Origin: Candidatus Omnitrophota bacterium
Lineage (GTDB): Bacteria > Omnitrophota > Gorgyraeia > Duberdicusellales > 4484-171
Direction of reading: 5' to 3'
DNA: 64,000 bases
NCBI GenBank assembly: GCA_037146775.1
Contig: JBAWWL010000001.1
Span: 197,464-261,463 of the forward strand
Positions 28,096 to 51,678 of the stretch are shown here, one piece after another. The notes below the pieces were generated by a model that searched no databases, was not told where the DNA came from, and worked only from the letters and a program-made list of their open reading frames with translations. Numbering within the stretch: the first letter of the stretch is position 1; the number at the start of each line of letters is the position of its first letter. Made by a program: the position numbers and the translations under genes.

Positions 28096-28710
28096 ATGAA
28101 AGGCTTGGGTATTTTAGCTTTAGGATTTTTTTTACTCGTAGCGGCTGGTTGTTCATCCGCTCCGGTAGAGAGCCTTCTGATAGATAGCTTTGAAGGCGAG
28201 ATCAATAAACAGACTATAGACTACGGTACCTCCGAAGGAACGGTATTGATGGTGAGCGCGGATATACAACAGAAAGTATGCGGGGAGCAGTCGCTTAAGA
28301 TTGAGTATGATTTAAAACCTTCGGGTTATATGTGGATAGCGCGAGGATACAATTTAGACGTAAAAAGCGCGGCGCAGTGGCTTATTACACCGCAGCAGAT
28401 CGTATGGAAGAAATACAATGCTATTAGTCTGCAGATGTATGGGAGTAATTCCGGCAGTGTCGTCGCTTTTGATATAAAAGATGCCGGAGGAGAGGTCTGG
28501 CGGTTTTTGATTGATGACGATTTTAGCGGCTGGAAAGAAATTGTATGCCTATTTTCAGGATTTTTTGTGCGCAAAGATTGGCAACCAGAAACAGCACAAA
28601 AAAATGATACCATTGATTTTCCGATCATGAGTTTTCAGTTTGAACCGCGTTTACCCGGCAAGGGAATGTATTATTTTGATTGTGTAAAATTGGTACGTGT
28701 TAAAGAGTGA
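28096..28710 (+). CDS. hypothetical lipoprotein
   Basis: Strong RBS AGGAGG. Signal peptide with lipobox LLVAAGCSS. Confidence 0.55.
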   Translation: MKGLGILALGFFLLVAAGCSSAPVESLLIDSFEGEINKQTIDYGTSEGTVLMVSADIQQKVCGEQSLKIEYDLKPSGYMWIARGYNLDVKSAAQWLITPQQIVWKKYNAISLQMYGSNSGSVVAFDIKDAGGEVWRFLIDDDFSGWKEIVCLFSGFFVRKDWQPETAQKNDTIDFPIMSFQFEPRLPGKGMYYFDCVKLVRVKE

Positions 28711-29038: not shown

Positions 29039-29329
29039 ATGGAAACTAAAAAGCAAAATCCGCTGGCGAACCCTTCTATCGTATTGCGCGAAGAATTCGA
29101 CGATTGGGCCCTTCTTTTTGACCCGGATACGAACGATATCTTCGCCATAGATCCGGTAGCGGTATTTATCTGGAAGCTTCTTAACGGGAAACGCAGCTGC
29201 AAGGCTATCCTGGAAGAATTAAAAGAGTGCTGCGACGATATACCCGAAGACGCCGGAACGTATGTGAATGATTTTATCCGGCAGTTGGAAGAGCGGGGTT
29301 TAGTTGGATATGAATCAACTCAAAACTGA
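29039..29329 (+). CDS. PqqD-family peptide chaperone (RiPP recognition element)
   Basis: 96 aa. Pattern VLREEFDDWALLFDPDTNDIFAIDPVAVFIWKLLNGKRSCKAILEEL...FIRQLEERGLV is typical of PqqD/RRE proteins. RBS AAGGAGA. Confidence 0.8.
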   Translation: METKKQNPLANPSIVLREEFDDWALLFDPDTNDIFAIDPVAVFIWKLLNGKRSCKAILEELKECCDDIPEDAGTYVNDFIRQLEERGLVGYESTQN

Positions 29330-30464
29330 TGAGGGTATAAAACTTGTACGTAGCCCGCGTTCCGTAGAGATCGCAATAACCAATACCTGCAATTTACGTT
29401 GCGCATACTGCAGCCATTTCACTAGCGCCGCTGATGTTCCTGGGGATGTTTCCCTCGAAGATTGGCTCTGTTTCTTCGAAGAATTAAACCGCTGTTCGGT
29501 ATTGAAAGTATGTTTGGATGGCGGGGAGCCGTTCCACAGAAAAGATATAATTCAGATTATCCAAGGTATCGTTGCCAACCGCATGCGTTTCTCTGTTTTA
29601 AGTAACGGTACTTTGCTGACTGACGAAATTGCTGCATTCTTGGCTTCAACGCGAAGATGTGATTTTATCCAAATTTCCCTGGACGGTTCTATTGCGACTA
29701 CGCATGATGCCCTGCGGGGTGAAGGCAGTTTTCGGAAAGCTCTCGCAGGCATCCAGGCGCTTCAGAAACACAACATACCGGTTGCGGTCCGCGTTACTAT
29801 CCATAAGCATAATTTGAATCAGCTTGAAGAACTTACGCATTTTTTATTAGAGGAAATAGGGCTGCGCAGTTTTAGTACCAATGCCGCCTCGTATATGGGT
29901 TTATGCCGCAAGAATTCCAGCCAAGTACAACTGACTGTCGGAGAGCGTTCCTTGGCAATGGAAAAACTTCTTACGCTTAGCAATAAGTATCCCAATCGTA
30001 TCAGTGCTATGGCAGGGCCTTTAGCCGAAGCGAAAGGTTGGCTTGAAATGGAAGAAGCCCGGCACACAAGAAAGGCTCAACCAGCCGGGCGAGGATATTT
30101 AACGGGCTGTGCAGGCCCGATGAGTAAAATTGCTCTTCGTCCCGACGGTGTCTTTGTTCCTTGTATTCTGTTGAGCCATATAGAACTAGGAAAGATGAAC
30201 AAAGATGATTTTCGAGCTATTTGGCAGTCTCATCCGGCGCTAAAAAGTTTACGCAGCCGGCATTTGATTCCGTTAAACGAATTCGCCTTTTGTAAAGATT
30301 GTCTTTATGTAGATTATTGTGCCGGCGGCTGTCCGGCCTTAAGCTATACTGTTGTGGGTAACATGAATCATCCCAATCCCGACACCTGTTTGCGCAAGTT
30401 TCTTGCGGAGGGCGGATATCTGCCGCGAAAAGGATTTTTGGAGGCTACGACAGTTGTATGTTAA
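29304..30464 (+). CDS. radical SAM/SPASM-domain peptide-modifying enzyme
   Basis: CxxxCxxC (CNLRCAYC) radical SAM motif. The C-terminus carries the SPASM cysteine array (GCAG...C, CKDCLYVDYCAGGCPA). Overlaps the PqqD end. Confidence 0.85.
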   Translation: MDMNQLKTDEGIKLVRSPRSVEIAITNTCNLRCAYCSHFTSAADVPGDVSLEDWLCFFEELNRCSVLKVCLDGGEPFHRKDIIQIIQGIVANRMRFSVLSNGTLLTDEIAAFLASTRRCDFIQISLDGSIATTHDALRGEGSFRKALAGIQALQKHNIPVAVRVTIHKHNLNQLEELTHFLLEEIGLRSFSTNAASYMGLCRKNSSQVQLTVGERSLAMEKLLTLSNKYPNRISAMAGPLAEAKGWLEMEEARHTRKAQPAGRGYLTGCAGPMSKIALRPDGVFVPCILLSHIELGKMNKDDFRAIWQSHPALKSLRSRHLIPLNEFAFCKDCLYVDYCAGGCPALSYTVVGNMNHPNPDTCLRKFLAEGGYLPRKGFLEATTVVC

Positions 30465-31612
30465 CTGATGAGCGTATCGGTACGTCTGTTGATTCAGAGA
30501 AAAAACAAACCCCTCTCTTACGCTACTTGTATTTTTATCTTATTGATGGTTGTAACCTTAATTGCCGGCACTGCTGGATTAATCCCCGTTCCCAAGTTAG
30601 CCCTGGTGCTATACCCGGCGTGTTTCTTGATTTCGATCTTTTTAAGTCAATCGTGCAGCAAGCAAAACCTTTTGGCCTTAGGGGGATAAAACTGACCGGC
30701 GGAGAACCATTACTGCACCCCCGTATCGTGGACATACTGGCATTTTTGCAGAAAGAGGAATTTTCGGTGGTTCTGGAGACAAACGCGGTTCTCTGCAGCA
30801 CTGAGTTTGCCAAAAAGCTCAGCGCCCTAAAAAATATTTTTGTCAGCGTAAGCGTGGATGGTTCTTGCAGCCAGACTCACGACTGGATACGCCAGAGCGA
30901 GGGAAGTTTTGCGGCCGCCATAAAAGGGATCCAAACTTTTGTTTCCTCCGGCATACGGCCGCAAATTATCATGACGATTATGCGCCGCAATAAAGGCGAG
31001 ATCGAGCAGCTTATAAAAATGGCTGAAGGCCTAGGTATCGAATCGGTTAAATTCAATATTACCCAGCCTACTGCCCGGGCTACCACATTGCAGGAAAATG
31101 GCGAAACGCTTACTATCGCAGAGTTGGTGTCGTTGGGCACCTGGATTGAGCGCGAGCTTTCGAAAAAGACCTCTTTACGTATTGTATATAGCCATCCTCC
31201 TGCGTTCCAGCCGCTTGGCAAATTGTATGCAACTACAAAAGATTTCTGTGGTGCCTGCGGGGTCTTGAATATCCTGGGAGTGCTTGCCAACGGTTCCTAC
31301 GCTCTATGCGGTATTGGACAGACGGTCCCTGAATTGGTGTTTGGCCATGCAGCCTCTGACAGGCTTATTGATGTGTGGCAGCATAACGCCGCGCTTACGG
31401 CATTGCGGCAAGGGTTACCGCATAAACTTGAAGGTATTTGTCAGGCTTGTTTAATGAAAAGCCGTTGCCGCGGCCATTGTATTGCCGAAAACTTCTCCAT
31501 GCACAAAAATTTGTGGGCAGGGTACTGGTATTGTGAAGCAGCATACCAACAAGGCCTTTTCCCTTTAAGCCGATTATCCCCAAAACATAAAAACGTTAGT
31601 GTGAGTAATTAA
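30458..31612 (+). CDS. radical SAM/SPASM-domain peptide-modifying enzyme (second paralogue)
   Basis: CNLNCRHC radical SAM motif and C-terminal SPASM cysteines (CGAC...C, CQACLMKSRCRGHC). ATGA-type overlap with the upstream rSAM gene. Confidence 0.85.
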   Translation: MLTDERIGTSVDSEKKQTPLLRYLYFYLIDGCNLNCRHCWINPRSQVSPGAIPGVFLDFDLFKSIVQQAKPFGLRGIKLTGGEPLLHPRIVDILAFLQKEEFSVVLETNAVLCSTEFAKKLSALKNIFVSVSVDGSCSQTHDWIRQSEGSFAAAIKGIQTFVSSGIRPQIIMTIMRRNKGEIEQLIKMAEGLGIESVKFNITQPTARATTLQENGETLTIAELVSLGTWIERELSKKTSLRIVYSHPPAFQPLGKLYATTKDFCGACGVLNILGVLANGSYALCGIGQTVPELVFGHAASDRLIDVWQHNAALTALRQGLPHKLEGICQACLMKSRCRGHCIAENFSMHKNLWAGYWYCEAAYQQGLFPLSRLSPKHKNVSVSN

Positions 31613-31621: not shown

Positions 31622-31846
31622 ATGCCCAAAAAAATCAAATGGACCAAACCACTCTTGAGGCCGGTAGATGGGTTAAAGAATGTTAGAGAAGGGGTGTCCT
31701 TGTCGTGTAATGATGGTAGTTCTGATGCGACCTCATGTAGCATGGGCAATAGCTTTTCTGGTGGTGACTGTACATCTTATGGCTCGAGCTATACTCCTCC
31801 GGTTTGCCCTGGCTATGGCTCTAGCTATTATTGCCCTATGGGTTGA
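31622..31846 (+). CDS. candidate RiPP precursor peptide (74 aa; Lys-rich leader, Cys/Ser/Gly/Tyr-rich core)
   Basis: Strong RBS AAGGAGGAGAT before the ATG. The translation was checked codon by codon. Five Cys at positions 29, 39, 50, 62 and 71; the YGSSY motif occurs twice. Encoded immediately after the two rSAM/SPASM genes. Confidence 0.6.
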   Translation: MPKKIKWTKPLLRPVDGLKNVREGVSLSCNDGSSDATSCSMGNSFSGGDCTSYGSSYTPPVCPGYGSSYYCPMG

Positions 31847-31893: not shown

Positions 31894-32805
31894 ATGGTTA
31901 CGCCCGTCTATACATTGTTCTTGGAAGAGGAACTAAAGTGGTATATAACCGCTACCGAAGACGCATCTTCCTGGATGCATAAATTTGCCGCTATCATGCA
32001 GCTAGAACCTTCTTCTACGAACAGGTTTTCGAAGCTTATTTTTACTACTCTGCAGGTAGACCAGAAATTATCTTCCGCATTAGCCCGCACCCTGCATGAT
32101 TGTTCCGGCGATATCTTCCCTCCACAAGACTGGTGGTTTGAGGATTTAGGCTTGGTTAAGTTTTGGCGTAACCAACATAGCGAGCACATTATTTGTCAGC
32201 TTTCCGGCCAGTCTATATATGAGGTTGATATCAACAAAATGTCCTTATCTCTTCATGTTATCTATCAAAAAGCCATAGAAAAAGAAGGCTTGCCCTTACA
32301 TGCCGGTCTAGTAGAAAAAGAAGAGATGGGTGTAGTACTGGCAGCGCCTGGTTCTACCGGTAAATCAACCTGTTGTCGCCGCATTCCTTTTCCTTGGCAC
32401 GCTTTATGCGATGATGAAACGTTGCTGGTGCGTGATGTCCAAGGAAGTTTCTACGCACACCCTTTTCCGACTTGGAGCGAGTATCTTTGTAAGCGTTCCG
32501 AGCGGACATGGAATGTAGAAAGAAGGATTCCTTTGTCGGCAATATTTTTTTTAGCCCAATCAGAGACCGAGGAGTTAGCGGCTATAACTCAGGCGGAATC
32601 GGCAGCATTTCTCCACCAGCTGTCTTTACAAATTTACGGACGCGGCTTAAAACGGCTCAAAGCCAGCGAAGGAAAGAAACAATCCCGCTGTTTGTTTGAT
32701 AATGCCTGTCAGCTGGCCAAATCTTTACCGGCATATATGTTGCGTGTCAGCCGGGAGGGTAGATTCTGGGAGAAAATGGAGGAAGCTCTTGAAAGAGTCT
32801 GTTGA
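31894..32805 (+). CDS. HPr-kinase-like P-loop protein (HprK-related / ScmC-like)
   Basis: P-loop APGSTGKST in the position of the HprK C-terminal kinase-domain Walker A. About 300 aa. Sits inside the rSAM/PqqD cassette. Confidence 0.5.
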   Translation: MVTPVYTLFLEEELKWYITATEDASSWMHKFAAIMQLEPSSTNRFSKLIFTTLQVDQKLSSALARTLHDCSGDIFPPQDWWFEDLGLVKFWRNQHSEHIICQLSGQSIYEVDINKMSLSLHVIYQKAIEKEGLPLHAGLVEKEEMGVVLAAPGSTGKSTCCRRIPFPWHALCDDETLLVRDVQGSFYAHPFPTWSEYLCKRSERTWNVERRIPLSAIFFLAQSETEELAAITQAESAAFLHQLSLQIYGRGLKRLKASEGKKQSRCLFDNACQLAKSLPAYMLRVSREGRFWEKMEEALERVC

Positions 32806-33394
32806 CGTTAATTTTGCTTATTTTGGTGCAGGCCCCAGCATGAAGCCTACGATATGTGCGCATGACCTTCTTTCTGTTTTTGCGTACAACGAGAGAAAAA
32901 TTATCCGCGGCGATGTGGTGGTTTTTATATCTCCCTTGAATGGCCGAAAAATTGCTCACCGGGTTATTTGCGCCGGAAAGCAGCATATCAGGACTAAGGG
33001 TGACCACAATCGCTATGTGGATCCCTGGTTGCTTACCCCGCAGGATATTATTGGTCAGGTAGCCTATGTACAAAGAGGAAAAAAGAGAATTCGTATTTAT
33101 GGTGCAGTGCTGGGAGAGCTTTATGTAACCAAGATAAAAATAATGTGTTTTGTGCGCAAAAGCGCATCTTTTATTTTTGGTATGTGTTACCGTTATATAG
33201 CCCAAAAAAGTCTGTTCTACCGTTTGAGTAAATTTTTTCTTAAACCGCGGCTGGTGGTATTTAACCGGCCTGGAGGAGAAGACCTGCAGTTGGTGCTCGG
33301 CCATAGCTTTGTCGTTGGCCGCCGTATGCCCGGAAAAAACACATGGCATATCCGCCGGCCGTTTCGTCTTCTGGTAGATAAAGCATTCCAGTAA
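32696..33394 (+). CDS. S24/S26-family Ser-Lys peptidase (signal peptidase I-like); start likely near 32789
   Basis: GAGPSMKPT (the SMxPT serine box) and KGDHNRY (the Lys/GDxNR box) of signal peptidase I/LexA-type peptidases. No N-terminal TM anchor. The longest ORF overlaps the upstream gene, so the true start is probably TTG 32789 or nearby. Confidence 0.55.
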   Translation: MIMPVSWPNLYRHICCVSAGRVDSGRKWRKLLKESVDVNFAYFGAGPSMKPTICAHDLLSVFAYNERKIIRGDVVVFISPLNGRKIAHRVICAGKQHIRTKGDHNRYVDPWLLTPQDIIGQVAYVQRGKKRIRIYGAVLGELYVTKIKIMCFVRKSASFIFGMCYRYIAQKSLFYRLSKFFLKPRLVVFNRPGGEDLQLVLGHSFVVGRRMPGKNTWHIRRPFRLLVDKAFQ

Positions 33395-33456
33395 TTTTGT
33401 AACAAGGCTTTCCTTCTCGCCCGGCATTTCTTTATGTCATCTTTTTTCCAAAACAC

Positions 33457-34653
33457 ATGAGCGTAATGCATAAAAGAATTACCTGGTTAGTCTGTGGTAA
33501 TTTTAACGGTTATCTCGATGACGGCGGCACCAACAGTACGTTGACGTTGTTGCGGGAATTACAGAAAAGAGGCGCTTCCTGCAGTGTGCAAGTTTTTCTT
33601 GGCTTGGGAAGTGTTGCGTCTCTGACGGCGTATGTTGCAAGAGTGAGAGATTTTGCCCACAGTGGCAGGATCATAATAAAAAAAGGCTACGTATCGTTTT
33701 ACGTAAAAAATATTCTTATTGAAGCACGCATCGTCAAGGAGAATATTTTTAAGCTGTATCATACGCGTGACGAAAAAGCGTTACGTGCCCTCACGCTCCA
33801 CATAAAAGCAATACTACGAATGACGCGGCCGGATATTATTATTACCAGCCAGGAAGATATTTTTTCTTTACGGGCGGCCGATGAATCAGGGATTCCTTGT
33901 TGCCATATTTTTTCGTCCGCGTGTTTTAAATTCCTCGATACGTTCAATATATACAAAAATGAATTCCGCGCATGCTTGGCAAAAACACTGGTAGTTACGT
34001 GTTCTTGTTTTCTAAAAAGAGATATAAGGAATATCTGGAATAAAAGAGCAATTTTATTACCGGCGCTGATTGACCGTATTTCATGCGTGGCCAAGAAGAG
34101 AAACCCGCGTTACATAACTTTCGTCAACTGTCATCCTCATAAGGGGGCAGTGATATTCTGGAATATAGCCAGAAAATTGCCGCATAAAAGATTTTTGGTA
34201 ATCGATAACCACGGATTTTTTCCGCTTAAGTCACCTCTGAAAAATGTCACTGTATTGCGTCGGCAATCAGACATGAAAAAAGTCTACCGGCTTACAAAAA
34301 TATTGCTTTTTCCCTCTCTTGTGGAGGAAAGCTATGGCATGGTTCTCGTTGAGGCGATGGCGAACGGTATTCCGGTTATCGCTAATCGCATAGAAGGCAT
34401 AAAAAATACTTTGCAAAAGGCAGGATTCCTTGTAGATATCAATCAAAGAGATAAAGATAAGAAAGATTATTTTTATAATTCCCTCTACCACATGAAAACA
34501 TATCAACAGTATGTGGCGTTAATTACCATGTTAGATTCCGATAGTGCGGTGTATAATAAAGCTTCGAAAAAAGCTCTGCAGGAAGCAGAAAGGATTATGA
34601 GCAGGCAGCGTCAAGCATTGGAGGGTTTCGCGGATCTTATCGCAAAGCGATAA
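33457..34653 (+). CDS. glycosyltransferase family 4 (GT1-type fold)
   Basis: C-terminal donor-binding motif EESYGMVLVEAMANGIPVIANRIEGI. Confidence 0.7.
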   Translation: MSVMHKRITWLVCGNFNGYLDDGGTNSTLTLLRELQKRGASCSVQVFLGLGSVASLTAYVARVRDFAHSGRIIIKKGYVSFYVKNILIEARIVKENIFKLYHTRDEKALRALTLHIKAILRMTRPDIIITSQEDIFSLRAADESGIPCCHIFSSACFKFLDTFNIYKNEFRACLAKTLVVTCSCFLKRDIRNIWNKRAILLPALIDRISCVAKKRNPRYITFVNCHPHKGAVIFWNIARKLPHKRFLVIDNHGFFPLKSPLKNVTVLRRQSDMKKVYRLTKILLFPSLVEESYGMVLVEAMANGIPVIANRIEGIKNTLQKAGFLVDINQRDKDKKDYFYNSLYHMKTYQQYVALITMLDSDSAVYNKASKKALQEAERIMSRQRQALEGFADLIAKR

Positions 34654-34717: not shown

Positions 34718-36451
34718 ATGAAAATAAGAAATATAGTCTGGCGTCGTTTTCTCCCGTATTTATACAGGTATCGGAAGCTACAGGTTGCTGTTATGGTTTT
34801 AAGCCTCCTGGCTATTCCGCTTGCCCTTTTGAGCCCTTACCTTGCGAAGCTGGTTATCGACAAGGCGTATATGGGCAAAGACCTGGCGTTATTTTTTATT
34901 CTTGCGGTAATAGGCGGTTTGGTCTTTGTGGTTACTGCTCTTATAAGCTCTTTGAATGATTATCTTTTAATGCGTATGAACCGCCGGGTTTGTTTTGATA
35001 TGGGAAGGGATATCTTCAGGCATCTCCAGAATCTGTCTTTAAGCTTTTTTGACACCAAGTCAGCCAGTGAACACATATATAAAATACATAATGATGTAAA
35101 TATCGTAAGTGCTTTTCTTTGTAACGCGTTGCCTCAAGGTGTCACCCTTGTCGTGCGATTTTTATGTATCTTCATCGTGGTGTTGCATCTTAACTGGAAA
35201 CTCGCTCTTTTTGCATTTTTTATGATTCCTGTAAGCTTCATCCACCCCTGTTTTTTCCGCAAACTGTTAAAAGAATCGACTACCGGAATGATAGAGAAAT
35301 CTCAAAGAATGTTCAGGTATCTTTGTGAAGTTTTTAGCCACACGCATCTGGTAAAAGCTTTTGGCAAAGAGGAATGCGAGACGCATCGGTTTGAGGTTGT
35401 TTCTCTGGAAAGATTCAACGTGGAGGCTACGCGCGATAAGTTGTTGAGTATAAGCGCTTTTTCCGGTTCTGTCCTAAACAAAATTATCAATGGCTTTATT
35501 GCCCTATATGGAGGGTATCAGGTTATTACCGGCGCTATGACGCTTGGTAGTTTCAGCGCGATAATGATTTATTCAGCCCAGCTTACAGGGCTTTCCAAAT
35601 TATTAGCCAAATTTTACGAAAATATCGCCATTAATTCGGTTTCTGTAGAGCGGTTGATTGAAATTTTAGATACCAAGCCAAAGATCGCAAACAAGAAAGA
35701 CGCTTTAGATTATCAAATCTTAAAGGGGAGTATCGACTTTAAAGACGTCTCTTTTGGGTATAAGGAAAACAGTTTTGTTTTGAAAAGTATGAATTTTGAA
35801 ATTACTCCTGGCTCGAAAATTGCCATTACCGGCCCTTCGGGGTGCGGGAAAACCACTTTGCTCTCGCTTATGTTAAGGATATATGACGTTAAAGACGGGG
35901 CTGTTTTGATCGATGGAATGGACATCAGGGATATGAGAATAGAGGCGCTTACGTCGCAAGTCGCCATAGTACTCCAGGAGCCTTTTTTATGGAACGATAC
36001 CATAGCGTGTAATATTCTGTATGGTATGGAGGGTGCCACTCAAAAGCAGATGGTTGAAGCGGCAAAAATTGCCGAGATACACGAGTTTATCGTGAGCCTT
36101 GAATGCGGTTACGATAGCGAAATCGGTGAAATGGCTTGTTTGCTTTCCGAAGGCCAAAAACAGCGTCTGGCCATTGCGCGTGCTGTTATAAAACGGCCGG
36201 CTGTCCTGCTTTTTGACGAAGCCTTTTCTTCTATAGATTCCGAAACCGAAAACAAAATCATAGATAATATTAATGGGCATCTTGCGGGTACCACTGTTAT
36301 AGTTGTTTCCCATAGAATTTCTACTATAAAAAGAATGGATGCGGTTTATTTCTTTGAGGGCCATTCCCATCTTGTGCGAAGTGCTCATTCCGAGCTTGTA
36401 AAAAGCAACGCGGCGTACAAGGAATTATTTACCGGTCAGCACGCCTCGTAA
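34718..36451 (+). CDS. ABC exporter, fused transmembrane and ATP-binding domains
   Basis: Six N-terminal TM helices, then Walker A GPSGCGKTT, signature LSEGQKQRLAIARA and Walker B LLFDEA. Confidence 0.85.
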   Translation: MKIRNIVWRRFLPYLYRYRKLQVAVMVLSLLAIPLALLSPYLAKLVIDKAYMGKDLALFFILAVIGGLVFVVTALISSLNDYLLMRMNRRVCFDMGRDIFRHLQNLSLSFFDTKSASEHIYKIHNDVNIVSAFLCNALPQGVTLVVRFLCIFIVVLHLNWKLALFAFFMIPVSFIHPCFFRKLLKESTTGMIEKSQRMFRYLCEVFSHTHLVKAFGKEECETHRFEVVSLERFNVEATRDKLLSISAFSGSVLNKIINGFIALYGGYQVITGAMTLGSFSAIMIYSAQLTGLSKLLAKFYENIAINSVSVERLIEILDTKPKIANKKDALDYQILKGSIDFKDVSFGYKENSFVLKSMNFEITPGSKIAITGPSGCGKTTLLSLMLRIYDVKDGAVLIDGMDIRDMRIEALTSQVAIVLQEPFLWNDTIACNILYGMEGATQKQMVEAAKIAEIHEFIVSLECGYDSEIGEMACLLSEGQKQRLAIARAVIKRPAVLLFDEAFSSIDSETENKIIDNINGHLAGTTVIVVSHRISTIKRMDAVYFFEGHSHLVRSAHSELVKSNAAYKELFTGQHAS

Positions 36452-36512: not shown

Positions 36513-37685
36513 ATGACGTACATGAAAAGATCGCAAACCATACCGGCTCAATATAGCGCACACATGGTCAATGCCGAAAAGTTTGTGGTGCTGTGCGTGC
36601 AGTATAATGGCGATGAATCTTTGCGGGAACAGGCAATGGCGTTCATCGCCGAGGGGATTGACTGGGAATATTTTGTTGATATTAGCGTAGCGCAAAAGAT
36701 TGCCGTCATGGTATATAACGTAATATACAAGATCGTACCACCCGAATGTATTCCTTGCTTTGTTTTTGACGCGCTGCGCAACGCATACCTTTATATAGTA
36801 TCGAAAACGCTTCTAAAACATACAGAGACCCTAAAGCTTTTAAGATTGTGTGCTCAGGCGCAAGTAAAGGTCGTGCCGCTTAAAGGGACTATTTTGGCGA
36901 AACGTCTGTACGGCCAAGTGCACCTGCGTGACTTAAGTTCGGATATTGATTTATTTATCGAAGAAAAAGATAAATTATGCGCGAGAGATATACTTGCCAG
37001 AGAAGGGTATGTTTTGCGTTTACGGGGTAACGACGATTATTCCGGGTATAATGAGTTTATGAAAGCAGGTTTTGGCAGTATTGACTTACAATGGAAGATA
37101 GTCGAGACTATTGATTGCAGCCGTTCCAGGCTAGAAGGTTTTTGGAGAGCCGTACAAAAAACGGAGGAGGAAGACATAACTTTTAGTGTGTTTCAAACGG
37201 AAGAATTATTGTTGTATCTTTGCGCCCACAGCATGAGCAAACATTGTTTCGGCCAGTTACGGCATATCTGCGATATACATCAGCTTTTGGTAGTGGAGCA
37301 TGCAGCGATCGACTGGAACCGCATCGTTGCGAAGGCAAAAGAATGGAATCTTTTAACTTCCTTGTATTGCGCGCTGTCGATGCGGCAATACTTTTTTAAA
37401 ATTTCTGTTGCGCCCGAAATAAAGAAAGTTTTAAAAATATCAAGGTTCAAGATTATGTTGCTAAAAGTATTTACGGATGAATTGGTCTTCTTCCGGCGGC
37501 AAAGCTTCCGGCGGCGCTTGGTAGACAGGTTTCTGGGTTTCGTTTTTTTTAGATTCGTTGAGGCGCGCAGCTTGAGAGATTACTTCTTTTTTGTTTTTCC
37601 TCCCAGGGAAGCGCTGCAAAGTAAAAGTTATCTTACCATGTTTTGGCGAGGATTGGGAAAGCTTACTTCGGTATTTGCACGATAA
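36513..37685 (+). CDS. nucleotidyltransferase-like protein (uncharacterised NTase family often seen in RiPP clusters)
   Basis: Central VVPLKGTILAKRLYG...DLSSDIDLFI region resembles pol-beta-type NTase GS...D.D motifs. The family assignment is from memory and unverified. Confidence 0.45.
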   Translation: MTYMKRSQTIPAQYSAHMVNAEKFVVLCVQYNGDESLREQAMAFIAEGIDWEYFVDISVAQKIAVMVYNVIYKIVPPECIPCFVFDALRNAYLYIVSKTLLKHTETLKLLRLCAQAQVKVVPLKGTILAKRLYGQVHLRDLSSDIDLFIEEKDKLCARDILAREGYVLRLRGNDDYSGYNEFMKAGFGSIDLQWKIVETIDCSRSRLEGFWRAVQKTEEEDITFSVFQTEELLLYLCAHSMSKHCFGQLRHICDIHQLLVVEHAAIDWNRIVAKAKEWNLLTSLYCALSMRQYFFKISVAPEIKKVLKISRFKIMLLKVFTDELVFFRRQSFRRRLVDRFLGFVFFRFVEARSLRDYFFFVFPPREALQSKSYLTMFWRGLGKLTSVFAR

Positions 37686-37974: not shown

Positions 37975-38178
37975 ATGTTTTCGACTGATCACGATAAAAT
38001 TTATCGGACTAAAGAGGTGCTAAAAATCGTAGGAATATCCCGGGCTACGCTTTATAACTGGTTTCGGGATGGGAAGATAAGGGAAGTGGCGCGGGATAGA
38101 AATGATTTTCGTATTTTTACCGAAAGTGATGTACAGGTAATCTTGTCGTATAAAAATATGGTGAAAGCGCCGGTATGA
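37975..38178 (+). CDS. small HTH DNA-binding protein (MerR/excisionase-like HTH_17)
   Basis: 67 aa. LKIVGISRATLYNWFRDGKI is a typical MerR-type HTH. Overlaps the PilZ gene start. Confidence 0.55.
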   Translation: MFSTDHDKIYRTKEVLKIVGISRATLYNWFRDGKIREVARDRNDFRIFTESDVQVILSYKNMVKAPV

Positions 38179-38540
38179 TATTTGGAAAAAAATATAGCGA
38201 GAGGCGGCAATACAAGAGAATTGATTGTTACTGTTTGATTCGCTATAGAGCGTTGAACAGCCAGGGTGCATACACGGAGAATCTTGCTTCAATACGTAAT
38301 ATCAGCGGCGGCGGTCTCCTGTTTAAATCACGGGAGTATTTACCGGTAGGAACGCAATTAGAAGTAAAAATAAATTTTGTAGCCCTGGAAAAACCAATTT
38401 TTGTTTTAGCAAGGGTAGTGCGTTTTGAGGCGAATAAAAAGAATGCGGGCAGCTATCGCATAGGGATTTTTTTTACTACTATTAAGGACCAGGATCGTAA
38501 AATCATAACTCAATTTACCGAGTCTGTGGAAGAGAGCTGA
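38175..38540 (+). CDS. PilZ-domain c-di-GMP-binding protein
   Basis: RxxxR (RRQYKR) and D/NxSxxG (NISGGGLLF) motifs. Confidence 0.65.
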   Translation: MIFGKKYSERRQYKRIDCYCLIRYRALNSQGAYTENLASIRNISGGGLLFKSREYLPVGTQLEVKINFVALEKPIFVLARVVRFEANKKNAGSYRIGIFFTTIKDQDRKIITQFTESVEES

Positions 38541-38541
38541 A

Positions 38542-40641
38542 ATGGCAGTTGCGGGCGACATAAAAAATAAGCTTGAACAGGAAATCAGAGTCACGTTGCG
38601 TGATTATTGGGAGATTTTTTATAAGCACCGTCTCGTTTTTTTGATAACTTTTGCGATAACATTGGCAATCGGTACTGTTGAGGTATTTTTTGTTATACCG
38701 CTGCGATATAAGGCGACAGCCGCCGTCATTGTTGCACCTCCCTCTGTCCAGTTAATATCACAGCGGCAAATGTTATTAAGGGAGAATTATGTTACCGCAG
38801 ATGAAGTTGAGCTGATGCGTAGCGGTGAGTTGATGCAAAAACTTGCGCTTTTTTTAAAAAATGACAAGGAATACGATTTGAATGTAAGCGCTAACGATCT
38901 TAAAAATATAATAGATATTTATCCGCGGCCGAGAACCGGCATTGTAGATATTGAGGCAAAGAGCGCATCTTCGCCTATCGAATGTTTTTATATAGTAAAA
39001 GGCTTACTTCAGGTATATCAAAAAGACGGGGAAGAACGTAGAGAGAATATAATCAAGCGTACCTATGATGACTTGAGCACTCAGCTGGGGCAGAAAAGAA
39101 AAGAATTGGAAGAGGCGGAACGCAAGCTCACCAAATTTGTTATTGACCATGAGATTATCGCCCGCGGTATCGAGGCTGGAGAGGAGGCCGTTAATCAAAA
39201 GGAAAGCGGCAAGACTACGCAGGAAAATGAATCAACAATAAATGCGAAATATTTAACTTTGAAATCTCAACGTATTGATGCGGAAAACTTTTTGAGCGAT
39301 GTAAAGAGGTATAGAAAAGATAGCGGCGATGTTGCGGCCTTGGTTTTTATCGCCAAAAAGGAACCCAGCCTGGTAGATTTGAAATTGCGCGATAAACTTT
39401 ACGAAGCAGAGCGAGAACTTTCTAAGCTTCTTCTTACTCAGAGCGAGCTGCATCCTGATGTTATCAAGGCAAAAGGCCAGTTAGATGAGGAGAATAAAAA
39501 AATAAGCATGGAGCTGGATAGGGCGGTGCAAAGCTTGGAAATAAGTATTGTTTCGGTGCGAGCGGAAGAGAATAAATTGCGCAATCTGATTAAGGATGGT
39601 TTAAGCGAGACGATGGTTGAGTATTCTGCGTTCAGGCGGGAAGTGGAAGTGAAAAAAAATATTTATGATAATTTTATTCAGGAGCTTCAACAGCTTGAAT
39701 TAATTTCGAAACTTTCCCGGGTGCCATTTTTAAAGATTCTACGCGCACCAACGCTTCCCGATGGCCCCACGAATCCCCGTTCTGTCTCGATGATTTTTTC
39801 TTTTTTCATGTCGCTTCTTTTTTCTGGGGGGCTAGTATTGCTGCTTGAGCATGTCAATGTCAGCTTAGAAAACGTAGAAGAAGTGGAAGACCTTTTGGGT
39901 TTGAGCGTTTTAGCTACTGTGCCCTTCTGGAAAGGGCACAGCCGCGAGGATGATGTGGTGCAGCCAGGGGGAAGGCATGTGCTTGGCCTTATCACGCTAC
40001 GCCATCCAAAGTCTATTATGAGCGAAGCGTTCCGAATGTTGCGCACAAATATTAAATTTGTCAGTGTTGATAAACAGATAAAGACGATTCTGATAACCAG
40101 CGTGCTTCCTAAAGAGGGAAAATCCATGGTTTCGGCGAATCTGGCAGCGATTATGGCCAGGGCCGGAGAAAGAGTGATAATTGTGGACGCAGATTTACGA
40201 AAACCAATGGTTCACCAGTATTTTGATATAGATAATGCAAAAGGATTAAGTACTCTCTTGGCAAGTAACGATTCTTTGGACGATATCGCTCTATGCGATA
40301 CGGAGATAGAAAACCTTAAAGTGTTACCTTCGGGTCCGATTCCTCCTAACCCGAATGAACTGTTGGCAACGTATCGGTTGGAAGCAATTTTGTCAAAGTT
40401 AAGCGAGCAGGCTGATTTGGTAATCGTCGACTCAACCCCAGTGTTGGCGGTGAGCGACAGTTTAATCGTAGCCGCTAAAACCGATGCAACGCTCTTGGTG
40501 CTTTTTGCCAGCAAAACTCCTAAGCGCGCCGCGCAGAGGACAGAACTTTTGCTCAAAAATTCAGGAGCAAAGATATTGGGCAGCGTCTTTAATGGTGTTC
40601 AAACCATAAAAGGCGGCTATTATTATAACTATAACTATTAG
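38542..40641 (+). CDS. polysaccharide co-polymerase / tyrosine autokinase (Wzc-like BY-kinase, fused)
   Basis: Two TM helices flank a coiled-coil periplasmic domain. Walker A PKEGKSMVSANLA, A' VDADLRKP and B LVIVDSTP. C-terminal Tyr cluster GGYYYNYNY. Confidence 0.8.
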   Translation: MAVAGDIKNKLEQEIRVTLRDYWEIFYKHRLVFLITFAITLAIGTVEVFFVIPLRYKATAAVIVAPPSVQLISQRQMLLRENYVTADEVELMRSGELMQKLALFLKNDKEYDLNVSANDLKNIIDIYPRPRTGIVDIEAKSASSPIECFYIVKGLLQVYQKDGEERRENIIKRTYDDLSTQLGQKRKELEEAERKLTKFVIDHEIIARGIEAGEEAVNQKESGKTTQENESTINAKYLTLKSQRIDAENFLSDVKRYRKDSGDVAALVFIAKKEPSLVDLKLRDKLYEAERELSKLLLTQSELHPDVIKAKGQLDEENKKISMELDRAVQSLEISIVSVRAEENKLRNLIKDGLSETMVEYSAFRREVEVKKNIYDNFIQELQQLELISKLSRVPFLKILRAPTLPDGPTNPRSVSMIFSFFMSLLFSGGLVLLLEHVNVSLENVEEVEDLLGLSVLATVPFWKGHSREDDVVQPGGRHVLGLITLRHPKSIMSEAFRMLRTNIKFVSVDKQIKTILITSVLPKEGKSMVSANLAAIMARAGERVIIVDADLRKPMVHQYFDIDNAKGLSTLLASNDSLDDIALCDTEIENLKVLPSGPIPPNPNELLATYRLEAILSKLSEQADLVIVDSTPVLAVSDSLIVAAKTDATLLVLFASKTPKRAAQRTELLLKNSGAKILGSVFNGVQTIKGGYYYNYNY

Positions 40642-40651
40642 TACTACGGTA

Positions 40652-41506
40652 ATGAAAAAAAACAGGGTGGATAATACTTGTAAGATACTAGCGCTGGCGG
40701 CTATGGTTTGTATGCTTGCTTGTGTTCATTTGCCTCAGCACAAAGTTTCTTCGATTGATACCGGCAAGGCCGCAAGTGCTAAAAAGGAAACAAAGGATGT
40801 TAAGGCAAAAGAGGTTGTCGAAGTGGAATTTGTGGCGGCTAAAGATCTCGATGAAGATTCGTGGGCGGCAGAGAACTATTTAGTTGAAATAGGCGATGTT
40901 TTGGAGATTTCGGTATGGCAGATCCAGGAGTTACAACGGGAAGTCGTGGTGCGGCCCGACGGAAAGATTTCGTTTCCGCTCATTGGAGATGTCGTGGCGG
41001 TAGGAAGGACTATTGACGAATTACGGCAGGATATTGTTGATAAAATTAAAATTTATATCAAGGTACCGCAGGTTTCTATCAATATCATAGAGTTTGGTGG
41101 TAAAAAGGTGGCGGTATTGGGAGAGGTGGGCAGTCCTGGCCTGGTAAGATTTAACGGTCCAACTACTTTGGCTGAAGCTCTCAGCTTGGCGGGAGATCTT
41201 ACCTACCAAGCCAATAAAGACAGGGTGTTTATTTTACGTACCATGCCCGGCGGTAAGCCGGTAGTAATTTATGCCAATGCCAACAAAATGCTGAAAGAAG
41301 GAGATTTGCAGGAGAACGTTTTTGTCCGTTCCGGCGACATCGTATATGTGCCCAGGTCTTTTATCCATGATTTTACCTATTTTATGGATAACGTATTTGC
41401 TAAAATCGTAGGTTACGGTGAGACGTACTATGGCGATACCTGGAAGCGATTCTATGGAGGCACTACCAAAACCTGGAAATACAAGAGCCAGATGACCCTT
41501 AGGTAA
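40652..41506 (+). CDS. polysaccharide export outer-membrane lipoprotein (Wza-like, Poly_export + SLBB)
   Basis: Lipobox MLAC. Poly_export motif region (GDVLEISVWQ...PDGKISFPLIGDVVAVGRTIDEL) followed by an SLBB domain. Confidence 0.8.
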   Translation: MKKNRVDNTCKILALAAMVCMLACVHLPQHKVSSIDTGKAASAKKETKDVKAKEVVEVEFVAAKDLDEDSWAAENYLVEIGDVLEISVWQIQELQREVVVRPDGKISFPLIGDVVAVGRTIDELRQDIVDKIKIYIKVPQVSINIIEFGGKKVAVLGEVGSPGLVRFNGPTTLAEALSLAGDLTYQANKDRVFILRTMPGGKPVVIYANANKMLKEGDLQENVFVRSGDIVYVPRSFIHDFTYFMDNVFAKIVGYGETYYGDTWKRFYGGTTKTWKYKSQMTLR

Positions 41507-41510
41507 TAGT

Positions 41511-43268
41511 ATGCTGCAGAAAATGAAAAGATTTATCGAAGGATTTAAACGCAAAAAGTTATTTTTTACTATCCCTTTTTTCTTCATTCTATTTATTGCT
41601 TTGATCGCTACCGTCATGAACAAACCGTATTATCGCGTAGTGACTACCATAAAGGTGGAAAATTCATTTGGCGTAGAGCTGTTGCAGCCAGAAATTATTT
41701 CTAAGGTATTGAGCAACACCGGTTTCTTGGACAGGAAAGACCCGGCGCGTTCAATCGCGTGGTTTAAAAGAATGGTGGCAGTAAACAAAGATACTTCTTC
41801 GGGGTTAATGGAGGTTTCTCTTACGGGTCACGATCAAACTATCCTCACACGCTTGACACGGGTATTGGCGCACGCGTATGTAGACGAGATTAATACAAGA
41901 AAAGAGCAGATGAGGCGCAGCGCGATACAGAAAAAAGAACAGGAATTGGAAGAATACAAAAATAATCTTAAGCATGAGCTGGCCGGTATTAAGAAAAAAT
42001 TGGAAGAGTACGAAGATCAGATGGAGAAGATCCGTGAGGAAGAAAAAGGAACTGCTTCAAAGAAGGAACCTCTGCGCGCGCAGTTGGCCGGAATGGAAAG
42101 CGAACGTGCTGATCTTTTACGTATTTACACCACTGCTCACCCAGATGTGATCCGACTTGACTCGGAAATCGCGCTCATAAAAGAAAAGATAAATACAATT
42201 CCCGAGGAACCATCGGGGAAGCTTAAGCTTGAACGAGAGCTGAAAGAATACCGGAGTTTATACGAAATTCTTCAGTCAAGATGGGATGAGGTCAGCCTCA
42301 AAAAAATAGACGATTTAAAGGATATCAAGGGTGGAGCGAGTATTATTTCTCCCGCTCAAGCGCCTTCGGCGCCGGCGGACATGATGATGAAGGAATTTAC
42401 GTTTTTGTTCGGCCTGATTATTGCGATAGTCGTGGGGCTATTTTCTGCTCTTACCGCGATATTTCTGGATACTTCGTTATTGACGGTGGAAGAATTTATT
42501 TTTTATACGCATCTTCCGGTTCTTGGTGCCATACCACTGGTCCGGGCATTTCAAAATAAACATATGCAAGGCAGCAGCAGTCTGCTCTTGGATTACGAGG
42601 GTAATAATGCGATAATAGAGCCGTATCGGATTCTGCTCTCGCACGTCCAGTCAACACTTTTTAACGAGCAGCTCAACGGTGTGTCCGTTTTGGTAACGAG
42701 TTCTGTAAGGGGGGAAGGTACTTCGACGACTGCCGCCAATCTTGCGTTGGTCATGGCACGCTCGGGCAAGCAGGTGTTATTGGTAGACGCGAACTTCTCT
42801 CACTCTTGCCTGCATCGGTTGTTTGGCATTGTGACGGTTATCCCCGGGTTTACCGATATCTTGCACCAGGGGGTCGCCTTGGATAGCGTTACTAAGGACG
42901 TAACCGATATAGTATTGGGGAAGGTTAGTTTAAATGCGGTGATCCAGTTTAAGGGGTTAGACCGCCTCAAGATTATTACCCGTGGTTCACCTCTTGCGGA
43001 TGCGAGCGGTTTATTACGCTCTGAGCGGATGGATGCGTTTTTAACCGAATTAAAATCAAAATTTGATTGTATCGTTTTTGATGGTCCGGCGATTATGGCC
43101 AGTGCTGACAGTGGGATTCTTGCTTCCAAGTGCGACGCTACCTTGCTTGTGTACGGCGCGGGCAAAACTCCCAAGGCGATGCTTAAAAATGCCGTGACTC
43201 GGTTGGAAGCTATCCAGAAAAAGAGGCAACTTCCGCTGAAAGGGGCGGTTCTCAACCAATGTATTTAG
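41511..43268 (+). CDS. Wzc-like chain-length determinant with a degenerate (probably inactive) kinase domain
   Basis: Same topology as Wzc. Walker A reads RGEGTSTTAANLA, so the Lys is replaced by Thr. The A' motif is degenerate (VDANFSHS) and there is no Tyr-rich tail. Confidence 0.6.
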   Translation: MLQKMKRFIEGFKRKKLFFTIPFFFILFIALIATVMNKPYYRVVTTIKVENSFGVELLQPEIISKVLSNTGFLDRKDPARSIAWFKRMVAVNKDTSSGLMEVSLTGHDQTILTRLTRVLAHAYVDEINTRKEQMRRSAIQKKEQELEEYKNNLKHELAGIKKKLEEYEDQMEKIREEEKGTASKKEPLRAQLAGMESERADLLRIYTTAHPDVIRLDSEIALIKEKINTIPEEPSGKLKLERELKEYRSLYEILQSRWDEVSLKKIDDLKDIKGGASIISPAQAPSAPADMMMKEFTFLFGLIIAIVVGLFSALTAIFLDTSLLTVEEFIFYTHLPVLGAIPLVRAFQNKHMQGSSSLLLDYEGNNAIIEPYRILLSHVQSTLFNEQLNGVSVLVTSSVRGEGTSTTAANLALVMARSGKQVLLVDANFSHSCLHRLFGIVTVIPGFTDILHQGVALDSVTKDVTDIVLGKVSLNAVIQFKGLDRLKIITRGSPLADASGLLRSERMDAFLTELKSKFDCIVFDGPAIMASADSGILASKCDATLLVYGAGKTPKAMLKNAVTRLEAIQKKRQLPLKGAVLNQCI

Positions 43269-44065
43269 CGTATTGGAAATTCAAAGAAAAACCGTTCGAG
43301 AATACGCCCGATCCTCGGTTTTTGTATAAATCAGCGAATCACGAGGAAGCATTAACAAGAATGAGTTATTGTATAGAAGAGCGCAAGGGGGCTGCGATGC
43401 TTACCGGAGAGTATGGATGCGGTAAAACCGTTTTGATCAGAACGCTTTTGAAAGAGCTTCTACGGGATGAATCGAAATACAAAGTAGCGCTCATTGTAAA
43501 TCCGTCTTTTTCGCCCAGTGATTTATTGAAAGAAATAATTTTTCAATTCGAAAATACTTTTTTAGCCGGCAGTAAATTGATGTTGATGCACCGGCTTAAT
43601 GATATTTTATTTCAGTGTATGAACGAAAGTAAAAAAACAGTTGTGATTGTTGATGAGGCCCAAGCCATACCCGATCATGCAATGTTTGAGGAGCTTCGGT
43701 TGCTTTTAAACTTTCAAAAGAACGACCAGTTTCTGCTTACGTTGCTCTTGGTCGGCCAGCCGGAATTATCCCAGCGGGTTGAGAGGCTGCCACAGCTGAA
43801 ACAGCGCCTTTCGATGGCTTATCATTTGAACAAACTGAATGAAAATGATATTTCTAAATATATCGATTACCGTTGTGCGGTTGCCGGCCGCAACGATATG
43901 ATTTTTAATGAACCGGCGATTAAATTTATCTCGGAAAAAACCAGCGGTATTCCCCGTAAAATTAACACGGTATGCGAATTATCACTTTTGCAGGGAATGT
44001 TTGAGAAGAAAACAATTATCGACGAAACTATAGTAGCAAAAGTAATAGAGGAGGGTTGGCTATGA
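43259..44065 (+). CDS. ExeA-like AAA ATPase (as in PEP-CTERM/EPS-locus secretion ATPases)
   Basis: Walker A TGEYGCGKT and Walker B VVIVDEAQ. Confidence 0.65.
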   Translation: MYLAYWKFKEKPFENTPDPRFLYKSANHEEALTRMSYCIEERKGAAMLTGEYGCGKTVLIRTLLKELLRDESKYKVALIVNPSFSPSDLLKEIIFQFENTFLAGSKLMLMHRLNDILFQCMNESKKTVVIVDEAQAIPDHAMFEELRLLLNFQKNDQFLLTLLLVGQPELSQRVERLPQLKQRLSMAYHLNKLNENDISKYIDYRCAVAGRNDMIFNEPAIKFISEKTSGIPRKINTVCELSLLQGMFEKKTIIDETIVAKVIEEGWL

Positions 44066-50274: not shown

Positions 50275-51678
50275 ATGCAGCAGACGACAGAGCGCGAGAT
50301 AACATTACAGGATTATATTGAAATTCTCAAGAAAAGAAAATTTGTTATCTTTTTATCTGTGGCGATTGTCACTATATCCAGTATCCTGTTTGTTCCTTCA
50401 ACGCCATCGTTTTATAAGGCCACAGCCCTTATCATTGTTGAGGGTTCTCCTTACAATATCGAACTGATGAAGTCGATAAAAAATTTTGTGAAAACTACTG
50501 TTTTGGCCGAAGAAGTGCTGCGTTATATGGAATTTGAGGAAGCCAAGGAGTTGAAGAAGGAAGGAGAATTTTCTAAGAAGTCATTACGCGGCATAACGCC
50601 GGCGGCATTACAGAATTTCTTGCTCGTGGAAAACGAAGAGGGCACGGATGTTATTAAAATTAATGCGTTGTCGAACGACGGTAAGACTTCCATGAATCTT
50701 GCCAACACCGTAGCGAATGTGGTGGTTGAACAGAGCGTCAAAGGCATGGCTGGTGGAACACAGGCTTCGCTAAAGTATGTGGAAAGACAAATTGAGCTTT
50801 TAAGCAAGAAAATGGATGAGATCAAGAGAACAATGACGGGCATTTCTTCAGGCACAAAAGAAGGGGAAAGTGTAGCTCCCGCAGAGGCGCGCGAATTCGA
50901 TAAATTGCAGCAAGATTATATCAATGCAAAGCTTGCGCGGCAAATGGCAGAGGCTCAGCTGAAGGTAATGGAAGACAGGCGCGGCGACAGAAGCAAGGGT
51001 GACAGCTTAGCCACGTTTTTCGCGCAGTCCCCGGAATTGCGCAAACTGCAGGAAGAATTGGTAACGTTTGAAGAAAAGCGCAAGGTGCTTTTAGTGCAGT
51101 TTACGGAAGAGCATCCCAAGGTGGTAGAATTACAATTAGAGATAGACCGGACCAGAGAAGCCATTGACAAGGAGATCCGTCAGCCCCTCAATGACCTAAA
51201 AGCACAAATTGCCGAATATAAAGAAAAAGAAGATACGTTGCGAAAGGTTATGGAAACGCGTTTCCCGCTTGTTACCGAGCAAAATAAGGACCAGCCTGTT
51301 GTCGACGAGGCGGCTGCGAGCGAGGATGTGCGCATAAGGCAGTTGTCGCGAGAGTTGAATTTGGACGAAAAAACATACAATGCATTATTGGATGAACGCG
51401 AAAAACTGCGGCTCGACGCTTTATTGAATGCCGCCAAGGTACGTGTGCTGCGGCCGGCTAGCGAGCCGGATAAACCCGAAAAGCCCGAGGGCCCGCCGCC
51501 GATTTTGATCGCTCTTTCGTTGGGGTTGGTCCTTGGCTTAAGTGCCGCATTTTTACAGGAAAATGTCGATACGTCGCTGAAAACTCTCGATGATGTCGAA
51601 TATTATTTGAATTTACCTATTATCGGAGTCGTTCCTTTTATCCGTGCGGATAAAAGGCGGCCAAGAAGAGGGGAGTAG
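50275..51678 (+). CDS. Wzz/GumC-type polysaccharide chain-length determinant (separate co-polymerase subunit)
   Basis: N-terminal TM, long coiled-coil periplasmic domain, C-terminal TM (ILIALSLGLVLGLSAAFL). Followed by a separate kinase subunit. Confidence 0.65.
   Translation: MQQTTEREITLQDYIEILKKRKFVIFLSVAIVTISSILFVPSTPSFYKATALIIVEGSPYNIELMKSIKNFVKTTVLAEEVLRYMEFEEAKELKKEGEFSKKSLRGITPAALQNFLLVENEEGTDVIKINALSNDGKTSMNLANTVANVVVEQSVKGMAGGTQASLKYVERQIELLSKKMDEIKRTMTGISSGTKEGESVAPAEAREFDKLQQDYINAKLARQMAEAQLKVMEDRRGDRSKGDSLATFFAQSPELRKLQEELVTFEEKRKVLLVQFTEEHPKVVELQLEIDRTREAIDKEIRQPLNDLKAQIAEYKEKEDTLRKVMETRFPLVTEQNKDQPVVDEAAASEDVRIRQLSRELNLDEKTYNALLDEREKLRLDALLNAAKVRVLRPASEPDKPEKPEGPPPILIALSLGLVLGLSAAFLQENVDTSLKTLDDVEYYLNLPIIGVVPFIRADKRRPRRGE

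Follow-up and report, generated by a model that had tools for sequence, protein, structure and literature searches.

A 64,000-nt stretch of the genome of Candidatus Omnitrophota bacterium (GCA_037146775.1, contig JBAWWL010000001.1, forward-strand positions 197,464 to 261,463; here called the window and numbered from its first letter) raises a question at positions 31894 to 33394: what do a P-loop protein resembling HPr kinase (HprK) and a soluble peptidase resembling signal peptidases do side by side in a gene cluster for a peptide that is made by the ribosome and modified after translation (a RiPP)? We found that both genes lie within the SynChlorMet (SCM) RiPP cassette of TIGRFAMs/NCBIfam and that the P-loop protein is the cassette protein ScmC. 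We think it probable that the two genes encode core maturation enzymes of this cassette, acting in the pathway set out below.

An earlier note on this DNA had placed the two genes inside a RiPP cassette, and the profile searches agree, with ScmD, ScmE, ScmF, and ScmC all scoring above the curated cutoffs of the SCM models. The genes form a compact operon on the plus strand, in the order ScmD, ScmE, ScmF, precursor, ScmC, peptidase, GT4, ABC exporter, and NTP_transf_5, with the following features.

29039 to 29329, plus strand: ScmD, a PqqD-family RiPP recognition element (RRE; leader-binding chaperone); TIGR04248, 111 bits (cutoff, 100); Pfam PqqD, E 9e-14.
29304 to 30464, plus strand: ScmE, a radical S-adenosylmethionine (SAM)/SPASM maturase; TIGR04250, 581 bits (cutoff, 400).
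30458 to 31612, plus strand: ScmF, a second radical SAM/SPASM maturase; TIGR04251, 507 bits (cutoff, 400).
31622 to 31846, plus strand: precursor peptide, 74 aa, rich in Ser, Gly, and Cys; hidden Markov model (HMM) of the precursor family, 48 bits, E 3e-13.
31894 to 32805, plus strand: ScmC, an HprK-like P-loop protein of 303 aa; TIGR04249, 297.5 bits (cutoff, 125).
32789 to 33394, plus strand: anchorless peptidase of the S26 family, endoplasmic reticulum (ER) type, 201 aa, with an inferred TTG start; it overlaps the end of scmC.
33080 to 33391, plus strand: C-terminal extension of the peptidase, basic and conserved (AlphaFold2 model; 224 representative clusters).
33457 to 34653, plus strand: GT4 glycosyltransferase (Pfam Glycos_transf_1).
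34718 to 36451, plus strand: ABC exporter, permease and ATPase fused (ABC_membrane plus ABC_tran); it recurs in SCM loci.
36513 to 37685, plus strand: NTP_transf_5 protein with a nucleotidyltransferase fold (PF14907, 162 bits), fused to the peptidase elsewhere.

The order ScmD-ScmE-ScmF-(precursor)-ScmC is the usual one for the cassette. The public label of the window protein at NCBI already reads "SynChlorMet cassette protein ScmC," and the locus is another member of a catalogued but uncharacterised system. Publicly deposited proteins identical to those of the window belong to a Candidatus Omnitrophota metagenome-assembled genome. The family description of the system covers only a pair of radical SAM/SPASM proteins, a homologue of PqqD, and a single conserved hypothetical protein, and it gives the precursor as unidentified. 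Beyond these catalogued parts, SCM loci repeatedly contain the S26-like peptidase, the NTP_transf_5 protein, the ABC exporter, and members of a precursor family. A Pfam search found no C39 peptidase domain in the exporter, and a separate leader peptidase is therefore needed. ScmC forms about 1,000 clusters and occurs at 144 loci in species-level genomes. Its hosts span several bacterial lineages, among them Desulfobacterota, Chlorobiaceae, Omnitrophota, Nitrospirae, Brocadiae, and Aminicenantes, as well as methanogenic archaea such as Methanothrix and Methanocella.

ScmC matched TIGR04249 over its full length (E 1e-88; profile positions 1 to 292 of 292), and its homologues carry PF27840. The P-loop APGSTGKST, on which the earlier note had based its description of an HprK-like protein, spans A151 to T159 (nt 32344 to 32370). 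In two alignments, of 23 and 26 sequences, H136, G156, K157, T159, and D173 were invariant, and D174 was at least 90% conserved. S158 and E175 were invariant in one alignment (for S158, that of 26 sequences) and reached at least 90% conservation in the other. In position, the His, Walker A, and Asp-Asp motifs correspond to the MHG...GxGKS...DD of HPr kinase/phosphorylase (HprK/P), and a longer string, H-G/A...G-x-G-V-L-L...G-x-G-K-S...D-D, aligns between the two proteins. When the ScmC family profile was compared with the PDB, HPr kinase/phosphorylases were the sole matches, weak ones (E 0.1 to 0.7) that extended over ∼45 to 55 residues. The AlphaFold2 model (predicted local distance difference test [pLDDT], 88) matched phosphoenolpyruvate carboxykinases (PEPCKs) in Foldseek at an E value of about 1e-8. 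This points to a PEPCK-like fold, the fold class assigned to the catalytic domain of HprK/P. The description thus held for motifs and modeled fold, and the profile searches that had been suggested put the protein in TIGR04249, with a match to HprK_rel_A that was local only (25 bits; cutoff, 200). "HprK-like" is fair for the fold and motifs of ScmC, which these searches do not place in the HprK family proper. Its N-terminal domain and its context are also different from those of HprK/P, and HPr is an implausible substrate.

The start of the peptidase gene needs to be settled before its active site can be read. Three starts were considered. TTG 32696, the mechanical start of the open reading frame (ORF), falls 110 nt within scmC. 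ATG 32840 is the public start and would drop an invariant Ser; between 32792 and this codon there is no start codon. TTG 32789 is preceded, at a distance of 6 to 7 nt, by GGAGGA (32777 to 32782). Because of this ribosome-binding site, and because TTG 32696 is inside scmC, the gene most likely starts at TTG 32789, which gives a protein of 201 aa with 16 residues ahead of Ser17. The public protein (P0001; 184 aa; "S26 family signal peptidase") opens at M18, directly after the catalytic Ser, and its start was probably mis-called owing to the TTG initiation codon. The reassignment corrects a public gene model that lacked its active-site Ser. An antisense ORF over the same region (32747 to 33427; 226 aa) was set aside as spurious, since the sense frame has hundreds of homologues.

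The earlier note had described the peptidase as lacking a membrane anchor, which was borne out across the family. Among 68 members, no 19-residue window upstream of the Ser box reached a Kyte-Doolittle value of 1.6, the Ser box lay a median of 31 codons after the preceding stop codon, and almost none had a hydrophobic segment anywhere in the protein. A membrane helix within the long helix at residues 106 to 139 was considered and rejected, as this Arg-rich region stays below 1.6 in nearly all members. The peptidase is predicted to be cytoplasmic. Residues ∼98 to 201 form a conserved Arg-rich extension that ends in WxIRRPFRLxVD and that AlphaFold2 models as one long helix, one short helix, and three strands. 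A search of 1.84 billion representatives with just this extension of ∼100 aa returned 224 clusters, nearly all of them ∼200-aa proteins of the same architecture, and the extension had no detectable relative outside this peptidase family except in P0246, a B12-binding radical SAM protein.

Regarding the catalytic type, the peptidase had been described as carrying a Ser box and a Lys box of the signal-peptidase-I/LexA type. The Ser box stands: GPSMKPT is encoded at nt 32831 to 32851, with S17 at 32837 to 32839. The proposed Lys box, KGDHNRY, belongs to TKGDHNRYVD (T69 to D78; nt 32993 to 33022); this is the GDxN...D motif of ER-type signal peptidases, their box E. In 69 of 69 homologous ORFs, S17, H57 (nt 32957 to 32959, within AHRV), R58, T69, G71, D72, and D78 were invariant, whereas position 70 varied: 42 of the ORFs have Arg there, 10 have Lys, 8 have Gln, and 9 have some other residue. 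The conservation that had been expected of a catalytic Ser and Lys was thus found for the Ser and not for the Lys. The catalytic Lys of bacterial signal peptidases (vAKRLI) aligns with His57, and the SEC11 counterpart at this position is the catalytic His (VHRV). The family profile matched human SEC11C (E 5.4e-13), human SEC11A (E 1.2e-11), and bacterial signal peptidases (E 1e-6), pairing SM with SM, vHRV with VHRV, and TrGDNN..D with TKGDNN..DD of SEC11. The best Foldseek matches of the AlphaFold2 model (pLDDT, 86) were also SEC11A and SEC11C. Given an invariant His57 at the Lys position and a variable K70, the sequences assign the peptidase to the Ser-His(-Asp) type of ER/Sec11/SipW enzymes and not to the Ser-Lys type; a Ser-Lys dyad using the Lys box is ruled out by the residue counts together with the SEC11 and bacterial alignments.

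Homologues of the window peptidase pass the S26 models (Pfam, 32 bits; TIGR02228, for archaeal-type signal peptidase I, 54 to 64 bits). The window protein scored 18 bits against Pfam S24, under the cutoff of 23.3, and it is not of the LexA/UmuD S24 type, having a His at the base position and no N-terminal domain. With ER-type signal peptidases (SEC11A/C, archaeal signal peptidase I, and Bacillus SipW), it has SMxP, HRV, and TxGDNN..D in common; unlike them, it has no anchor, is predicted to be cytoplasmic, carries the ∼100-aa basic C-terminal domain, and occurs in a RiPP context. A further point of comparison is SodX, the maturation protease of Ni-superoxide dismutase, an S26-family enzyme whose specific substrate loses a short propeptide at its N terminus. 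SodX has another substrate and context and no C-terminal extension, and its model, TIGR02754, gave 14 bits for the window peptidase and 28 to 38 bits for homologues, all far under the cutoff of 63.

We searched the loci for precursors with an HMM iterated from seven small ORFs, which returned 93 small ORFs, and 81 of these were analysed closely. All 81 carry a leader motif Y/W-x-x-P-x-L, with Tyr in 68 and Trp in 13; YxxPxL at positions −17 to −12 is the lasso-peptide leader motif that is read by PqqD-type RREs. The first Cys follows the motif Pro by 14 to 17 residues in 66 of the 81. Ahead of this Cys, 59 precursors have Gly or Ala at −2, and 57 have Ala, Gly, Ser, Val, or Thr at −4; when small residues were scored by the (−3, −1) pattern of signal peptidases, that register fitted 45, while every other offset gave 22 or fewer. 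The core consists of decapeptide repeats (Cys-Cys spacing mode, 10; 2 to 19 Cys per precursor) in which 78% read C-x-x-G, followed by positions rich in Ser, Thr, Gly, and Asn and by Ala or Pro at +6. Ser and Thr together account for about 39% of residues at +4 and about 35% at +5 after the repeat Cys. The window precursor has the leader motif WTKPLL and a core of five Cys in C-x2-3-G-[SN]-S repeats; its sequence (...NVREGVSLSCNDGSS...) departs from the family consensus.

Several features of the precursors are recorded here as side observations. The longest cores reach 19 Cys (e.g., L023 10912 to 11331). Some SCM loci have up to three ScmC copies and three to seven precursor paralogues; seven precursor copies were found in L038 and five each in L013 and L010, and L067, L023, L007, L037, and L043 are also multicopy. 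The core of the window precursor is unusually rich in Ser and Tyr compared with the family, and extra O-glycosylation is conceivable.

To describe linkage, we used 80 species-level genome loci with ScmC, 42 of which are well flanked (at least 6 kb on each side of ScmC). The peptidase was present at 63 of the 80 loci, within 400 bp of ScmC at 54; it was missing despite ample flanks at 8, and at 9 the contigs were too short for a verdict. By a stricter count, ScmC was directly followed by the peptidase on the same strand in 52 of the 63. Among the well-flanked loci, the peptidase was found at 36, ScmD at 30, the precursor at 30, ScmF at 27, and ScmE at 26, with the ABC exporter at at least 21 and NTP_transf_5 at at least 17 (lower bounds, from single-sequence searches). 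The peptidase is the most constant neighbour of ScmC. All four of the metagenomic contigs encoding a peptidase homologue that we examined also show the cassette: three have the order PqqD-radical SAM-radical SAM-(small ORF)-ScmC-peptidase, in the fourth the peptidase lies ahead of small ORFs and ScmC, and in two of the four the ABC exporter and NTP_transf_5 follow. At seven loci (L031, L034, L056, L058, L073, L077, and L079), ScmC and the peptidase, often with NTP_transf_5, occur without ScmD, ScmE, or ScmF detected within 10 kb, which hints that the pair can work with other maturases or far from them. The GT4 glycosyltransferase, which in the window sits between the peptidase and the ABC exporter (33457 to 34653), has a homologue near ScmC at only 3 of the 80 loci (L065, L067, and L078), or 2 of the 42.

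The peptidase or its extension was also found fused to other proteins, as follows.

L007 11327 to 13381, L051 10840 to 12837, and P0224: peptidase fused to NTP_transf_5.
L009 3766 to 5340: S26 core fused to NTP_transf_5.
P0287/L086 797 to 1846: ScmD fused to peptidase.
P0299/L087 5038 to 6564: ScmC fused to peptidase.
P0246: B12-binding radical SAM protein with the C-terminal extension of the peptidase only.

S17, H57, D72, and D78 are kept in all the peptidase fusions. Judging from the last protein, the extension may be a portable module for docking or recognition. In L086, the ORF upstream of the ScmD-peptidase fusion was considered as a candidate ScmC and is not ScmC.

For the pathway itself, we infer the catalytic activities, the order of the steps, and the cleavage site, taking the family memberships, residue conservation, absence of an anchor, linkage, fusions, and precursor motifs as observed. 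ScmD would bind the 74-aa precursor through its YxxPxL-type leader, and ScmE and ScmF would cross-link the Cys-repeat core. ScmC would spend ATP on the leader-bearing precursor, most likely by phosphorylating Ser or Thr in the core or, alternatively, by licensing cleavage. Judging from the precursor sequences, core phosphorylation is possible because Ser and Thr recur in every core repeat. NTP_transf_5, and here also GT4, may decorate the product further. The soluble peptidase, with Ser17 as the putative nucleophile, His57 as the base, and Asp72/Asp78, would then cut off the leader one to three residues ahead of the first Cys, at a small-x-Gly/Ala site, and the ABC transporter would export the product.

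This reading has a precedent in lasso-peptide clusters, on which the earlier note had drawn for the kinase. In those clusters, HprK homologues do phosphorylate Ser of the precursor (PMC8498205, PMC10368454); the kinase, K, takes the precursor with its leader as substrate, the RRE stimulates K, and a nucleotidyltransferase, N, follows (PMC8498205, PMC10368454). In a Bradymonas cluster, the RRE stimulates the HprK-like kinase and the leader protease alike (PMC10368454), and some Firmicutes clusters have N and the leader protease B2 as a fusion (PMC8498205). SCM loci and the lasso sets (paeninodin PadeK, pseudomycoidin PsmK/PsmN, and Bradymonas BsfB1/B2/K/N) share a YxxPxL leader with a PqqD-type RRE as well as fusions of the leader protease, in SCM the putative one, with a nucleotidyltransferase (PMC8498205, PMC10368454). 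By gene content they also share an HprK-like P-loop protein, a protein of the NTP-transferase fold, and an ABC exporter. In contrast to the lasso sets, SCM loci have two radical SAM/SPASM enzymes and no lasso cyclase, an S26 Ser-His peptidase in place of the Cys protease B2, and Cys-repeat precursors without an obligate C-terminal Ser.

It is important to note that several observations weigh against the pathway that we propose. ScmC had no match at E ≤ 0.1 in the Pfam copy that we searched, and so none to Hpr_kinase_C; it gave no significant whole-protein match to HprK, and the PDB profile alignments were limited to the P-loop region. The lasso kinases need a C-terminal Ser of the precursor as phospho-acceptor (PMC8498205), and here the analogy is weakened: only 12 of the 81 SCM precursors end in Ser, and the window precursor ends in ...CPMG. 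Taken alone, the window peptidase falls just under the model cutoffs (Pfam S26, 22.7 versus 22.9; TIGR02228, 43.5 versus 51.85). The window precursor (...VREGVSLSC...) is without the family Gly at −2, and its predicted cleavage site is ambiguous, being G24|V25 by the Pro spacing and conserved Gly or S26|L27 by the (−3, −1) rule. The ScmD and ScmC fusions each come from one metagenomic contig and may be artefacts of assembly or frameshift. Finally, in open-access papers and preprints we found no experiment on any SCM component and no paper naming the SynChlorMet cassette.

Among the alternatives, the strongest is that ScmC and the peptidase form a single ATP-gated machine for leader removal, in which ScmC would be no tailoring kinase that leaves a mark on the product and would bind or phosphorylate the precursor (or the peptidase) solely so that cleavage is permitted, or timed, to follow cross-linking. 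That ScmC and the peptidase are the tightest gene pair in the loci, by both the adjacency and the well-flanked counts, is in its favor, as are the fusion P0299, the loci without nearby ScmD, ScmE, and ScmF (e.g., L031, L034, L056, and L058), and the lack of a conserved C-terminal Ser as a mark of the product. We nevertheless regard it as unlikely, since gating of an S26 peptidase by a P-loop kinase has no precedent known to us and P0299 comes from a single contig. Moreover, the characterised HprK-like relatives leave a stable phosphate on the peptide (PMC8498205).

A bolder version, which we would call distinctly unlikely, extends this to a whole class. ScmC and the Ser-His S26 peptidase, the latter with its basic C-terminal docking domain, would constitute an unrecognised portable module for ATP-gated leader removal that occurs with or without the radical SAM pair, is found fused to an RRE, NTP_transf_5, or a B12-dependent radical SAM protein, and replaces the lasso B2 protease on YxxPxL leaders. 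The product, with decapeptide C-x-x-G repeats bearing radical thioethers and phospho(glyco)syl marks, would represent a new class of RiPP.

The core repeats also allow a different chemistry, in which ScmC would phosphorylate core Ser and Thr for elimination, the resulting dehydro-amino acids would react with the repeat Cys to give lanthionine-like rings, and the radical SAM enzymes would do something else. Phosphorylation followed by elimination is the logic of class II to IV lanthipeptide synthetases, and each 10-residue repeat does have one Cys with a Ser/Thr-rich position 4 to 5 residues on. However, positions +4 and +5 are frequently Gly, Asn, or Ala, Pfam and NCBIfam searches found no lyase or cyclase domain in the cassette, and thioethers in sactipeptides and ranthipeptides are usually made by SPASM radical SAM enzymes, of which the cassette has two. 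We consider these rings very improbable. Least probable of all is that the peptidase is no leader peptidase and is instead a regulator that cleaves itself as LexA and UmuD do, a SipA-like chaperone without activity, or a processor of some other protein (e.g., one from the adjoining export locus of the exopolysaccharide [EPS]/PEP-CTERM type), for although S24 and S26 share one fold, LexA and Streptococcus pyogenes SipA are among the Foldseek matches, and EPS export genes adjoin the cassette here and in L001, L017, L027, and L050, the protein has no DNA-binding domain, its catalytic residues are all invariant (unlike SipA), its linkage to ScmC holds in bacteria and archaea whatever the neighbours, with EPS genes near in few loci, and its fusions with ScmD (the RRE) and NTP_transf_5 connect it with the peptide pathway.

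The surroundings of the cassette contain further genes. Downstream (window 37975 to 44065) are a small helix-turn-helix (HTH) protein and a PilZ protein, followed by EPS export genes in the PEP-CTERM/XrtA style: Wzz/BY-kinase, Poly_export (best match, pepcterm_export), another kinase-like protein, and an AAA_22 protein resembling pepcterm_ATPase. None of these reached the curated cutoffs. The order HTH-PilZ-Wzz-Poly_export also follows the SCM cassette in L001 (13673 to 17279), and Wzz homologues flank the cassette in L017, L027, and L050; from this gene order, a functional link between the SCM peptide and EPS is possible. A second chain-length/BY-kinase set, with a Wzm/Wzt ABC system, lies at 50275 to 54529. 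Between a GAF histidine kinase/response regulator pair and this second set is a 687-aa protein (48202 to 50265) with Schlafen AlbA_2 and HATPase_c_4 domains and a long TPR array. Directly upstream of ScmD (28096 to 28710) is a 204-aa protein with a CBM_11 carbohydrate-binding domain and a hydrophobic, Cys-containing N terminus (LLVAAGCSS) that resembles a lipoprotein signal; this protein had no homologue in the other SCM loci examined.

The earlier note had called this peptidase an unusual choice for a RiPP leader peptidase, and in open-access papers and preprints we found none of such a kind. The cassette itself is known. We did not find in that literature a description of the precursor family, of the fusions, or of a cytoplasmic ER-type S26 peptidase as the constant partner of ScmC. 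A RiPP system that is widespread and, as far as we found, unstudied gains a testable lead, consisting of a constant partner of ScmC, a precursor family, a candidate cleavage motif, and a link to lasso-type leaders. If the role that we propose for the peptidase is true, the S26 Ser-His fold would join the known RiPP leader peptidases, and the SCM enzyme would be a rare signal-peptidase homologue acting in the cytoplasm on a dedicated substrate.

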